Source of the DNA: Elsinoe ampelina
Lineage: Eukaryota
Length of the DNA stretch: 38,115 bases
Reading direction: 5' to 3'
Assembly: GCA_010093995.1 (NCBI GenBank)
Contig: ML992544.1
Span: 1 to 38,115, forward strand
Of this stretch, positions 148-14,197 are shown one piece after another; the first letter of the stretch is position 1, and each line of letters starts with the position of its first letter. A program made the position numbers and the translations under genes. The notes below the pieces were generated by a model, which was given only the letters and a program-made list of their open reading frames with translations, made no database searches and was not told the origin of the DNA.

Positions 148-1350
148 CTTCCGTGAGTATATGGCCAGGAGCACGAATTACATCCTGGTAGCAGACAAAC
201 ACATCTCGCATAATGGGAAGTAGACGCAGATGAACAATCGAGCAGTAGGAGAGCGATATCAATCATGTCGTACATGATCAGAGCAGCCCACCTTCATGCA
301 TGACAACACAGCGCCGGCGTGGCTGCAGGCAAGGTACAGATGCCCAATTAAGACGCCGGCCTGCATAATGCTGCGCTGGCGGATTGTGGTCGTGCAATAT
401 CTCCATCCCGCAAATGATCGATCATACATCTCGACCGCGGCGTCGGCCGTCTGAATTGATACGGATCGGCTTGAGCTATGCCTTCATCAACAACGGCTAT
501 TGCAAAAGGACAAATGGCGAGTGAGCTGGAAGAGAGGAGCGTGCTCCGAAAGCGGAAGGCAGAAGCGGGCGGAAAGACAATTAGCCGAGGTTATGTGGTT
601 GACCCACAGGAAGGAATCGTTTGCTCACGCGATCTCTCCTCCAAAGACATCCATCTCGAAAAAGCATACATCTCAAGACACATCTCAGCCATCATATTCC
701 TTCCGCTGTCTCCCCGCGTCTTTCAGGCTCTACTGCAATGACGCAGACGTGTTGAAGTCGACGAGGTTGACCAGCCTCACTGACCGTGCGTCCTCAACAT
801 GCCGAGCACATGACGGCAGGATCATCATGTCCGTTCGGACCCTGTACATTTGGGAATTCGAAGGCTGGACTTTGGCAACAGTATCAATCCATGTCCTGTA
901 TTGAGAAGAATTGGCAGGGCTGGAAATCACCGTTGAAATACACCCAACGGCCCGCAGTCATGTTCGCATGACCTTGTCTGCAGGGTCCGCAGGGCTGAAG
1001 ATTGGTGCACACTGACATCTTTACATTCTTGACAGCCTTGCCAGTTTGTATGTGAGTGTGATGGACCAGTAGAATATTCATCGAGGTTGGTAGGTATGTC
1101 TCTCTCATTCTCACCCGCCTCTACTCCGCATTCCTCAGTCGAGCCTCACGAACACCCACAAAATCAGAAAGTAGAATCGATTTTAACGGTGTCAACTGCC
1201 CCTAGCGATTAGATAGTGACACAATCTTCAACGGTCAGAAATTGGTCTTTTGAGCTCTCTAGATATATGAAACATTACCATGAAGACGATCTTCTACTCA
1301 CCTGGTCACGACACTTGACTGCTGTCCACACATTCCTTACACCAGCAACC

Positions 1351-6888: not shown

Positions 6889-7618
6889 CCTTGTGTGTGA
6901 ACGTCCTGTCCAAAACGGGATAGCTAAACTACGCGCCCTGCCCTCGCTCTGTCCGAGCAACGCCTCCTCGATGCAGACATCGAGATCCAGTCAAGGGGAA
7001 AGAGGATCACGAAGATCATTCAGGAGGTGGCATAGAGAAGCAGCACGCGCTGATGAGGCTTACCTGGCCAGCTTCACTAGCAGACGGAGTAGAGCTCAGC
7101 CTTAGCCAGACATACGTGCGTGTTGTGTAACCTTGACGCCAGATTCCAAGCTAGGTTCTCGGGGCCGCGTGGCTCGTTCAGGACTGGACGTGAGCTTCCA
7201 ATGATACGCAGACACCAGTATCAGGTTCCTCGTAGGCAGTGCCACCATACGGGATACAAACATGACTACATCATTGGATGTGAGAAGTGCAAAAGGAAGA
7301 GCCCGCGCCGCGCAAGAATCAGATTTTGTGGATGCGCGCTTACAGTACCGGACTTGGGCGGCGCGTCTAGAAATCATCCAATCAGATCTTGTCGCGGCAG
7401 CTATTTAGCGCGTTTTGTCTTCAGTCCGGTGTTGTTTTGCCTGGCTCTGTCTTATGTCAATGATAGAACATGTGCCGCACAGCAAAGCTGAGCCTCCGTT
7501 GTAGTGTGAGGTCAACCCTCCCAGGGATCGTCTGTCCGATGTCACTCCAAGTCTTTGTGTTCCTATTGCATACTCCGCCTGTTCGACATCGATTGTGTGT
7601 AGAGCAATCAATCCCGCC

Positions 7619-9072: not shown

Positions 9073-9734
9073 CATGGACAGAGCGTACCCCAAGAGCGAT
9101 ATTCTATGTGAGAGGGCGACTTACACCAGTCCACGGGTGCTTCCTGATGAAGGACAGAAGCACGAACCATACCTGCAAGCCTGTTGGTTATCAGCACGAG
9201 CCTATCAAAGCCTGCATGAATTGCAACCATGTGCCTGCATCTGACAACTATGTCATGCGATTCGTTCTTCGTTCCCGTTGATCTATTTTAGGATCCGTTG
9301 TTACCGACATGGCTCGAGAAGCATGTGTCAGGTCCCAGCCCAGTGCACCGGATCCAACGACACATGGCGGATATTGAACGACATTCCACCATTTTGCATA
9401 GAAAATTGGTCATGACTTGTGCTAAAGTGGTCGTATGAAGCCCAAATTTCGTAGAGATGTCCTTGAGCAGCCAATGAAGCACTCCAAGTACTCGAACTTT
9501 GACCGAGTCACTGTGTCGAGCGATTTGCTTCCCAAGTGACGACTAAATTTTGACACTATCTGCTCGATCGATTGACTACCATATTGCCTACAATATCCAT
9601 GCCGGCTGAAGACCGGCTTTTGCTGATCCTATCACACGAGTACGGTTCTGCTCGGAACCGATTCTCAACTCCCACCAGCTGTGTGTAGCAATATATATTT
9701 CGTTGGAGCTCGATCCTTCATCCAATCAAGCAAT

Positions 9735-9936
9735 TCCCTCATAGCTCAGTTGGCTAGAGGTTAGTACACCAATCGGCTAATCTTCGGACTATCGGCTAAT
9801 CTTCGGCTCAGCGTTCGACTGTTAGACACTGTCATTACACCAGTAGATCTCAATCGAGAGGGTGAGCAAATCTTGTCTGTTCAAATCGAAGCGAAACTGA
9901 CCATTACAGTCGATGGTTCGAGCCCATCTGAGGGAG
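9735..9936 (+). tRNA. tRNA-Asn(GTT): tRNA-Asn (GTT) with three introns: spliceosomal-type 9760-9811, canonical tRNA intron 9825-9852, spliceosomal-type 9862-9909
   Basis: Exons 9735-9759, 9812-9824, 9853-9861, 9910-9936 total 74 nt. Acceptor stem TCCCTCA/TGAGGGA + G73; D-stem GCTC/GAG|C; anticodon stem TTCGA/TCGAG with loop CT-GTT-A|A; variable loop AGG|TC; T-arm GATGG-TTCGAGC-CCATC. A and B boxes intact. Confidence 0.93.
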
Positions 9937-9939
9937 TCC

Positions 9940-9944
9940 TTTTT
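9940..9944 (+). terminator. RNA polymerase III terminator (T5) of the tRNA gene
   Basis: TTTTT starts 4 nt after the discriminator base. Confidence 0.75.
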
Positions 9945-10866
9945 GGCATCTTCAGAGTGAGGGCTTTCGATAGATACTACTTTTGTTCAAATACATGGAC
10001 TTTTGACCAAGTTGTGATCTTTTTGCTATGTGTGGGCATGGATTTTTGGAAAAACCTGCGCTAACTAAACAGCAATATGCTCTTCGGAGACCTTACAGAC
10101 CATCCCATCATTTGACAGCTTCAAGAGATTCAAGATTCAAATGTGATAATATCACTCAAATGTGGCAAAAGTGATCGAGTACCTATACAGATTTGCTATA
10201 CAAGTACCTCACTTTCCAGCATGATCACTTCACCACCAGATGTCCGAGCTGTCACCTTTTTTTTCGGATCATGTTAGGATTGCATATAGCAACAGAGCAC
10301 GTCTACTTCAAGTATTTACAGCACGAGGTTAGATACATCCCACAACTCCTGTCTTTCGTATTCGGATAGGATGTTGTCACTATCCCATGCATGGATGGCT
10401 TAACGTTAGGACGGGGCCTGTGCCCTGCCTCGCACACGATATATGAAGCCGGACCTCATGCTCTTGGCTGTAGGCTTGTGATACTTCGGCTTGAAGTGTT
10501 TTGGTACTACCAGAACTATGTAGTGAAGCACATGTGTCAGTCAATTCAAGGGATGGCTTGCCTGCCTCGCGAGGATTCGATGTTCAATTGCATCGATATG
10601 AAAAAATGCCACGGGGGCGTCAATGGCAATGAGTCGAAGACCGTCGAAGCACAAACTGGCAATGCTGACAGCATCACGCATCCTTGCCTTACATAGCATG
10701 GCGCAGATCACAAGGATCGGGTCATACTGTTGCCCAACTGGGGACGTTCTTGCTCATCTTACCGATGCCTGATATCATATTCTAGGCCCTGAATGCCAGG
10801 CTACACAACCCATAGCTCGAAGTCAACGCCAAACTGTACAGAACGTATACTCATAACCTATACACA

Positions 10867-12795: not shown

Positions 12796-14197
12796 ATGAG
12801 TCCAGGCACTCCAGACTGGCGAGGCTCATTAAGCTTTAGCGAGAGATTACAGTCGATTCTTCGAATGTAGGTCGCGTCTCAAATTACCATGAATTTTACT
12901 GATTGCTAGTCAAATTGCCCAGACTCATCGCGACGACACATCCTCAACCGAATCACAAATTCGGGCAAAGGCTCGTGAAAATGAGATATACAAGACAGCC
13001 ACTTCTCGAGTATGACGCCGGTCTTACATCACAGCCGAATTCGATACTGATAATGTCCAGGATCTGTACGAGATCTTGGTTGGGAACCACATTCGTAACC
13101 TCGAAAGCATACCCGTTGTGGGCGGGGCCCTGGAGGAAGCCGACTTGAGCGATGATGTTGACCAGTTACTGTCCGGAGGGGTCACCATTGGCGACTATAT
13201 CAACGCACAACACTACAAAGATGGCCAGACCGCTATCATCTACAAGGCAAAGTCGATCAAGCAATGTCCTTCTAGAGACAGTATATGGAAGGGCGGCTTT
13301 GTGGCGTTGAAGGTCACAAATCCGTCAACCATGACACCGCCGCACGACTCGAAGCGGGAAGCAAGACTTCTCAGAGCATGTGCGTCAAAACAAGTCGTTC
13401 CATTGCTTGACGCGTTTGACGCCAAAGGAGGACAATTTGTCCTGGTATTTCCGTTTCTGGCTATAGATCTGGACGAACTGCTTCGTCGTGGAGCCATCCC
13501 TGAGGTCCGTGGCAAGGCTATCATGAAGGATGTGCTATCCGCCTTGGTCCACGTTCATGGAATTGGCATGATACATCGAGATATCAAGCCGTCGAATATC
13601 CTGTTGAAACATCCGAATGGACCTGCTTGGTTGGGTGATTTCGGTATAGCCTGGTCACGGGACGATCCAGCTTCAGAATCGTTCGACAAGAAGATACTGG
13701 ATGTCGGCACTACGTGCTACAGACCTCCAGAGCTCGTGTTTGGTAATGAGAGATATGGTGCGAGTCTGGACATGTGGGCTCTCGGTTGTGTAGCTGCGCA
13801 AGTCTTTGATCTTGGTCAACGAACTTTGTTTGACTCGGGCGATCTTGGTAGCGATTTGGCTTTGATCAAAAGCATTTTCGAGACTTTGGGCACACCGAAT
13901 CTCGATATCTGGCCTGTAGGTTGTCCGTTCAACCCATACCGTCTATACTAATCCCCGGCAGGAAGCCAGAGGATTTCCGGACTGGGGCAAGATGGCTTTC
14001 AAGGAGTATGAGAGCCGGTCGTGGGGTGTCATATTGCCCAAGGCGTCCCCTGAAGCACGAGACTTCGTTTCCCAGCTTGTCTGCTACGAGAGTAAATCAC
14101 GATTGATACCCGCAGTGGTGAGCTCCTGCCAGATTGACAATGAGTAAAGCACCGAAAACTAACTCTTTAGGCACTGGATCACCAGCTTTTGAGATGA
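12796..14197 (+). CDS. csk1-like: CDK-related Ser/Thr kinase, Csk1/Cak1 (CDK-activating kinase)-like, ~402 aa, with an N-terminal helical KIX-like segment
   Basis: Exons 12796-12866, 12910-13009, 13061-13915, 13962-14117, 14171-14197, all GT-AG and frame-consistent. VALKVT, HRDIKPSNILL, DFGIAW, DVGTTCYRPPELVFG, DMWALGC, FPDWGKM. No GxGxxG loop (YKDGQTAIIYKA), as in monomeric fungal CAKs. Confidence 0.8.

Follow-up and report, generated by a model that had tools for sequence, protein, structure and literature searches.

Our analysis of a 38,115-nucleotide (nt) stretch of Elsinoe ampelina DNA (contig ML992544.1, positions 1 to 38,115; hereafter the window) centres on a tRNA-Asn(GTT) gene on the + strand, between 9735 and 9936, in which exons of 25, 13, 9 and 27 nt are kept apart by inserts of 52, 28 and 48 nt. 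On balance, we lean towards seeing it as a functional nuclear gene of a Dothideomycete that has acquired two U2-type spliceosomal introns (inserts 1 and 3) besides an intron at position 37/38 (insert 2), and whose product would be made via the spliceosome first and the tRNA splicing endonuclease TSEN thereafter. Joined in silico, the four exons (Table 1) give a 74-nt cloverleaf which ARAGORN calls tRNA-Asn(GTT), with four fully paired stems that include one G-U pair and with a proper anticodon loop that is present once all three inserts are removed. In standard numbering the inserts sit at 24/25 in the 3' strand of the D-stem, at the canonical 37/38 and at 46/47 in the variable loop. A first-pass annotation, made from the letters of the window, had already described four exons and three inserts with these coordinates and lengths and was right on every one of them; its statements that excision restores all stems and that insert 2 is at 37/38 are borne out by the joined 74-mer (the latter given the canonical 37/38 rule), for which the tRNA-finder run it had proposed was done with ARAGORN. 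When inserts 1 and 3 alone are taken out, the permissive intron mode of the same program assigns insert 2 to 33/34 and the gene to Glu(CTC). This alternative arises only with insert 2 at 33/34, and because eukaryotic tRNA splicing keeps to the 37/38 rule we read the gene as tRNA-Asn. Neither the A-box region (9742-9753) nor the B box (9915-9925) is interrupted, and the latter is the sole motif of its kind on the + strand of the window; together with the T5 run, the three elements that had been reported as intact can thus all be read in the sequence. Within insert 1, a stretch of 16 nt occurs twice in direct orientation (9772-9787 and 9791-9806; period 19 nt), duplicating the branch motif. Minus this duplication the insert would measure 33 nt, less than the 43-nt minimum of local mRNA introns.

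That inserts 1 and 3 look like products of the same splicing code as nearby protein genes emerges from a reference set of 14 mRNA introns located between 3000 and 16000, defined by the contigs of four public runs and set in GT..AG register. These runs come without an RNA entry on record, and their RNA nature was judged from the short GT..AG segments they skip and from a poly(A) end at 9095. Local mRNA introns are 43-53 nt long (n=14), a range into which both inserts fall. G at +5 is found in 12 of the 14 as well as in inserts 1 and 3, and so is a strict CTRAY branch motif whose A lies 7-13 nt ahead of the 3' end (11/14, or 13/14 when the looser YT(A/G/T)AY is allowed in the same interval), the putative branch A being 9799 for insert 1 and 9900 for insert 3, i.e. 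12 and 9 nt from the respective intron ends. A YAG end is shared by 13/14 local introns, and both inserts close on CAG. Based on four criteria (GT; G at +5; CTRAY 7-13 nt from the end; YAG), inserts 1 and 3 score 4/4 and insert 2 scores 0/4. For comparison, all four are passed by 10 of the 152,260 segments with a length of 48 or 52 nt that the two strands offer, real introns counted in. The equivalent border registers that the tRNA structure allows are three for insert 1 and two for insert 3, of which one each is GT..AG. With so few passing segments and just two or three registers to choose from, chance resemblance is not a serious explanation, and together with the idea of an assembly artefact we regard it as practically negligible: no point in favour of either was found, and the same architecture occurs in independent metagenome assemblies (see below). 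Hence, ends, signals and length support the assignment of inserts 1 and 3 as U2-type GT-AG introns of spliceosomal type, and the likeness to the mRNA introns of the window that the first-pass annotation had pointed out extends over signals and length to 14 verified introns, the base at +3 of insert 1 excepted.

Some minor observations concern the window and the runs used for reference. A mitogen-activated protein (MAP) kinase exon encoded in the window shares 96-98% identity with proteins named from Cladosporium, Cryoendolithus, Aureobasidium and Hortaea, which places the host among the Dothideomycete ascomycetes. Runs X2, X3 and X6 join 14115 to 14170 with one additional C, run X1 joins 14116 to 14170, and run X3 has 15 different letters in place of 7118-7216; these variants are probably strain differences.

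A bulge-helix-bulge (BHB) motif defines the non-canonical tRNA introns found in archaea and some algae (PMC10485636, PMC13578239). One may therefore ask if inserts 1 and 3 are cut by a protein endonuclease and sealed by a ligase, with TSEN cutting outside its canonical site, as known from archaea, red algae and nucleomorphs, and with the GT..AG ends being incidental. Introns in the D- and variable regions are indeed known from archaea and some algae (excerpts of PMC10485636 and PMC13578239), and the same gene already relies on that pathway for insert 2. We nevertheless consider this option very unlikely. A strict test, in which a 4-bp central helix has to lie between two 3-nt bulges with the splice sites, was applied in every equivalent register and to strict forms only, and none of nine non-canonical introns (two here, seven metagenomic) has a fully paired central helix, the best reaching 3/4; for inserts 1 and 3, 0-3 of the 4 central pairs form in any register. 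Moreover, both inserts fold less stably than their own shuffles (z +1.8 for insert 1 and +0.9 for insert 3), insert 2 alone occupies the canonical position, and the four-subunit TSEN of fungi is described, in excerpts of a 2023 review, as removing introns at 37/38 only (PMC10485636). A complete set of spliceosomal signals far above chance, which in addition recurs in relatives, also speaks against protein-only removal. In regard to their source, nothing points to an introner-like origin of inserts 1 and 3, as no similar copy of either was found elsewhere in the 38-kb window or in 50 metagenome loci and as their folding is weaker than that of shuffles.

The architecture is not confined to the window. 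The metagenome scan pattern consisted of the last 18 bases of exon 1 (two positions open) plus GT, a combination impossible in an intact D-stem, and it returned 50 loci, each taken as the match with 600 nt on each side and holding almost no coding sequence. All 50 were put through a strict parser that demands acceptor pairing of 7/7, a T-stem of 5/5 plus the T-loop motif, AG followed by the D-stem-closing C, an anticodon stem of 5/5 and correct lengths. It resolves ten loci, eight of which are tRNA-Ile; the other two (L029, L030) contain a bacterial-type tRNA nested within a tRNA and were counted as false positives rather than split tRNAs. The 40 loci left unparsed appear to be GC-rich bacterial tRNA-like sequences or fragments. 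Joined by the truncated L040, the eight parsed loci amount to five distinct tRNA-Ile genes (Table 1), and each of the 8/8 spliced forms is a 74-nt tRNA-Ile according to ARAGORN. In all five genes the D-stem is interrupted exactly at 24/25 by a GT..AG intron (49-83 nt), a 20-39 nt intron without splice signals sits at 37/38, and two of the genes carry a variable-loop intron too, which in L038 occupies the 46/47 site of insert 3. Thus, a look for other GT-AG-split tRNAs, as proposed at first pass and made here in metagenomes, does find them at the same D-stem site. All metagenomic D-stem introns end in a CAG acceptor, and a branch-like motif lies 9-12 nt from the end in 6/7 of the metagenomic non-canonical introns, the exception being the 83-nt intron of L014. 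As a control, the same pattern on a prokaryote genome collection gave 11 loci; a single one parses, with inserts of 7 and 131 nt, and is a nested tRNA. Brute-force removal of one or two GT..AG segments combined with ARAGORN intron mode (8,127 candidates) was abandoned as too permissive, since it yielded tRNAs in 17 loci with conflicting solutions.

Pairwise comparison of the four Ile(AAT) genes shows mature sequences to be 97-100% identical (shuffled 55 +/- 4%), D-stem introns 57-62% (shuffled 52 +/- 5%) and 37/38 introns 42-52% (shuffled 45 +/- 7%). Their sole exon difference is a double change from T-A to G-T that preserves acceptor pair 5:68. With exons and signals conserved and intron interiors diverged, the tRNA-Ile genes are seen as working genes whose introns are kept removable, a signature which such sequence comparison suggests for tRNA-Ile and not for the tRNA-Asn gene itself. 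Two further observations touch on how the introns may be related. The variable-loop intron lies at 45/46 in L024 as opposed to 46/47 in L038 and the window, an offset that could come from the intron having slid by one base or from separate gains at adjacent sites. The last 16 nt of the D-stem intron, from branch motif to acceptor, are 14/16 identical between the window (9796-9811) and the tRNA-Ile gene of L001; this could stem from common descent of the intron between tRNA genes with the same D-arm or from constraint plus luck.

Table 1. Features of the split tRNA-Asn(GTT) gene in the window and of the related tRNA-Ile genes from metagenomes.
Feature	Location	Strand	Remarks
TATA-like element, AT-alternating run	9690-9700	+	35-45 nt upstream of the tRNA 5' end; putative role
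Exon 1, positions 1-24 (acceptor 5' strand, D-stem 5' strand, D-loop, 3 bases of D-stem 3' strand)	9735-9759	+	holds A-box region 9742-9753
Insert 1, 52-nt spliceosomal-type intron, D-stem 24/25	9760-9811	+	donor GTTAGT, branch CTAAT 9796-9800, acceptor CAG
Exon 2, positions 25-37 (C25 closing the D-stem, anticodon stem 5' strand, loop with GTT)	9812-9824	+	from joined 74-mer
Insert 2, 28-nt intron at 37/38, presumed TSEN substrate	9825-9852	+	without GT..AG ends, without branch motif
Exon 3, positions 38-46 (anticodon stem 3' strand, first 3 variable-loop bases)	9853-9861	+	from joined 74-mer
Insert 3, 48-nt spliceosomal-type intron, variable loop 46/47	9862-9909	+	donor GTGAGC, branch CTGAC 9897-9901, acceptor CAG
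Exon 4, positions 47-73 (T arm with B box 9915-9925, acceptor 3' strand, discriminator G)	9910-9936	+	from joined 74-mer
T5 run, Pol III terminator-like	9940-9944	+	3 bases past the discriminator; putative function
tRNA-Ile(AAT)	L001/L002/L041		D-stem GT..AG intron + 37/38 intron
tRNA-Ile(AAT)	L024		D-stem GT..AG intron + 37/38 intron + GT..AG intron at 45/46
tRNA-Ile(AAT)	L031		D-stem GT..AG intron + 37/38 intron
tRNA-Ile(AAT)	L038/L040		D-stem GT..AG intron + 37/38 intron + GT..AG intron at 46/47 (L038)
tRNA-Ile(TAT)	L014/L016		83-nt D-stem GT..AG intron + 39-nt 37/38 intron

As for transcription, the features of a type-2 (tRNA) gene of RNA polymerase III (Pol III), namely internal A and B boxes with a T run downstream, are all present, the three inserts all lie between the two boxes, and the longest T run in any insert is at most two, T4 being found in 2/14 local mRNA introns. 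These features hint that the tRNA-Asn gene is probably transcribed by Pol III. The window and the four fungal-type tRNA-Ile loci have in common an ATATAT element in the 60 nt upstream and a CAA-rich stretch directly before the gene. In some plants and fungi, TATA boxes that precede tRNA genes have functional importance (excerpt of PMC3978253), and by analogy the TATA-like element at 9690-9700 may be part of the promoter. An alternative scenario retains the same introns and the spliceosome but has the precursor made by RNA polymerase II (Pol II), either as a capped non-coding RNA or through read-through from a neighbour, with the tRNA freed by RNase P and RNase Z like the tRNA-like ends of some Pol II RNAs. 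In its favour, spliceosomes are normally recruited in concert with Pol II, this polymerase could use the TATA-like element as well, and in the tRNA-Ile(TAT) relative (L014/L016/L062) a T5 run occurs within the D-stem intron and the 40 nt past the gene lack any T run. To our mind, however, a Pol II precursor is improbable for the window: the T5 run follows 3 nt past the discriminator, the intact A and B boxes enclose all inserts, none of these has a T run above two, and the transcript of the upstream gene has its poly(A) at 9095, 640 nt short of the tRNA.

Under our preferred reading, i.e. spliceosomal removal of inserts 1 and 3 followed by TSEN, a precursor of about 205 nt would be transcribed, most likely by Pol III with the help of the TATA-like element and the A and B boxes, and end at the T5 run. 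Inserts 1 and 3 would then be removed by the spliceosome, with lariats formed at CTAAT and CTGAC, the cloverleaf would fold after this step, and insert 2 would be left to TSEN and tRNA ligase while the ends mature as usual. Folding predictions agree with such an order, which the first-pass annotation had suggested. In the full precursor the cloverleaf is predicted to be 27.9 kcal/mol above the minimum-energy fold, and with insert 3 alone removed it is still at 22.6 kcal/mol; the predicted gap shrinks to 6.3 kcal/mol upon removal of insert 1 alone and to 4.8 kcal/mol upon removal of inserts 1 and 3, compared to 4.4 kcal/mol for the mature tRNA. It is insert 1, therefore, that is predicted to prevent cloverleaf folding. 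Splicing as such, the polymerase, the order of the steps and the need for this particular gene copy are what we infer from the above. Among the joints of RNA-like contigs between 3000 and 16000, none of the 15/17 joints listed and no listed piece falls inside 9735-9936, which is no evidence either way, and in run X1 the low depth of bin 9510-9943 is about that expected from a contig ending at 9668.

Several points weigh against the proposed pathway. At +3 of its donor, insert 1 carries a T, a base found there in 0/14 local introns (A in 10, G in 3, C in 1). The 5' GT of metagenomic D-stem introns was set by the search pattern and is for this reason not evidence, a constraint of which acceptors, branch motifs and entire third introns are free. 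No orthologue of the tRNA-Asn gene was seen among the metagenome loci, so that comparative support comes from tRNA-Ile genes. Pol III is not safe to generalise because the tRNA-Ile(TAT) gene has a T5-containing intron and lacks a T run in the 40 nt that follow it. Apart from U6, we know of no established case in which Pol III transcripts are processed by the spliceosome. Splicing of the tRNA-Asn precursor is argued from sequence rather than from RNA junctions, and intact tRNA-Asn copies may exist elsewhere in the genome and render the split gene dispensable. The last point leads to a scenario in which the locus is a dead or dying redundant copy that took up introns and gives no functional tRNA, as intact tRNA-Asn genes elsewhere suffice. 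Fungal tRNA families are usually multi-copy, which favours this idea. Against it, stems, boxes and terminator are intact despite at least three events (two insertions and the 19-nt-period duplication in insert 1), both inserts retain full splice signals, and the tRNA-Ile architecture persists in four diverged lineages with exons 97-100% identical and pair 5:68 preserved. Hence, we think a dead copy unlikely and favour a working gene that depends on the spliceosome as well as on TSEN.

How does such a gene compare with known systems? The closest precedent is U6, a Pol III transcript whose intron is removed by the spliceosome in S. pombe (Tani and Ohshima 1989, cited in PMC5855946), and fungal U6 genes can carry up to four introns with canonical signals, most of them without experimental validation (Canzler et al. 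2016, in the excerpted PMC5855946). Like these, the tRNA-Asn gene encodes a small, structured non-coding RNA, is of Pol III type and is broken by several short introns with a canonical 5' splice site, branch and 3' splice site, otherwise unconserved. It differs from U6 in its host, a tRNA, which is no part of the spliceosome and to which a U6-like origin by reverse splicing at the active site is for that reason not directly applicable, and in that its transcript would also carry a TSEN-type intron, bringing two unrelated systems together on one RNA. Also, spliceosomal removal is known for the S. pombe intron whereas ours is read off the DNA. Introns are found, moreover, in U3 snoRNA (small nucleolar RNA), U1, U2 and U5 of fungi, where ordinary spliceosomal introns occupy a few recurrent positions with lineage-specific gains (excerpts of PMC5832005 and PMC5855946), a pattern similar to that reported here. 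None of those hosts is a tRNA. Most intron-bearing U1, U2, U3 and U5 genes are Pol II genes. U3 is termed Pol III-transcribed in an excerpt of PMC5832005.

With archaea, red algae (C. merolae, C. crispus) and nucleomorphs the gene shares multiple introns (up to three per tRNA gene) in D- and variable regions, and the split genes of these groups, too, are overlooked by eukaryotic tRNA finders (excerpts of PMC10485636, PMC13578239 and PMC3978253). Their introns are BHB-defined and cut by tRNA endonuclease, unlike inserts 1 and 3 with their GT, branch and AG signals and no BHB geometry. The canonical eukaryotic TSEN intron at 37/38 has its like in insert 2 (28 nt, signal-free), while inserts 1 and 3 are elsewhere, and eukaryotic tRNA genes are limited to one intron, as the excerpted account of tRNAscan-SE 2.0 puts it (PMC8450103). 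Finally, introner-like elements occur in Dothideomycetes, a class known for recent intron gain (excerpt of PMC4457414), and hence in the same fungal class; inserts 1 and 3 differ from them in being single-copy in the 38-kb window and the 50 loci and in not being stably folded.

As spliceosomal introns in small-RNA genes are already known, what is new here is the tRNA as their host and the combination with a TSEN intron. Our search of the main texts of the open full-text literature (subscription journals lay outside its scope) did not turn up any tRNA gene described as having spliceosomal introns, and excerpts of PMC10485636, PMC13578239, PMC3978253 and PMC8450103 mention none either. Taking the genes together, we tentatively propose, as something close to an even call, that spliceosomal introns constitute a fourth and overlooked class of tRNA introns. 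It would comprise Asn-GTT, Ile-AAT and Ile-TAT genes of Dothideomycete-like fungi and, apparently, of at least one giant-virus or algal lineage; its members would recur at two sites, one directly following the A box and one directly preceding the B box, and their Pol III transcripts would pass via the spliceosome before TSEN, so that tRNA supply is tied to mRNA-splicing capacity and the genes go systematically unannotated. This would depart from the prevailing view, in which a eukaryotic tRNA gene has no more than one intron, at 37/38, with protein-only removal and with fungal TSEN confined to that site (as given in excerpts of PMC10485636, PMC13578239 and PMC8450103). A tRNA that passes the spliceosome and then TSEN would connect two splicing systems thought to be unrelated, widen the U6 precedent for the spliceosome on Pol III-type genes and offer a natural substrate to study how the spliceosome is recruited without Pol II. 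Recurrent insertion after AG or GG between promoter boxes may also inform how introns arise.

That standard finders would miss such a gene had been predicted, and they do. ARAGORN reports zero tRNA genes in the whole unspliced window, both without and with intron mode, and Rfam has no match to the unspliced DNA at gathering thresholds, nor on 9500-10200 with E values up to 10. If our reading is true, the tRNA sets of many fungi, and perhaps of other eukaryotes and giant viruses, would be under-annotated.

The tRNA-Ile(TAT) gene is found on two metagenome contigs (L014:594-789, +; L016, reverse strand) and on a 5.5-kb contig from a giant-virus bin (L062:594-789, +), whose record name begins IMGVR_UViG_GVMAG and to which L014 and L016 are identical over the shared part. 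Its neighbour encodes an exostosin-family glycosyltransferase. Weak matches to hepatitis delta virus (HDV)-like ribozymes (RF02682; 25.6 and 26.1 bits at a gathering threshold of 44, E 0.14 and 0.1) lie on either side of the tRNA, at L014:530-590 and 815-872 (+), and are probably due to chance, although this two-sided placement is odd.

Nested tRNAs of the kind met in L029 and L030 (metagenome) also occur in L049, L053, L055 and L061, records of Candidatus Kaiserbacteria. In these loci the 5' part of a bacterial-type tRNA stops at D-stem closure and a complete tRNA is found some 60-110 nt further on; in L029 and L030 the missing 3' part of the outer tRNA comes after the inner one. Many GC-rich, bacterial-looking metagenome loci (L005, L007, L009, L013, L021, L022, L026, L044-L046 and similar ones) hold tRNA-like genes of about 87 nt with an unusual D-stem closure (GAGGT instead of GAGC) and an unusually long anticodon arm.

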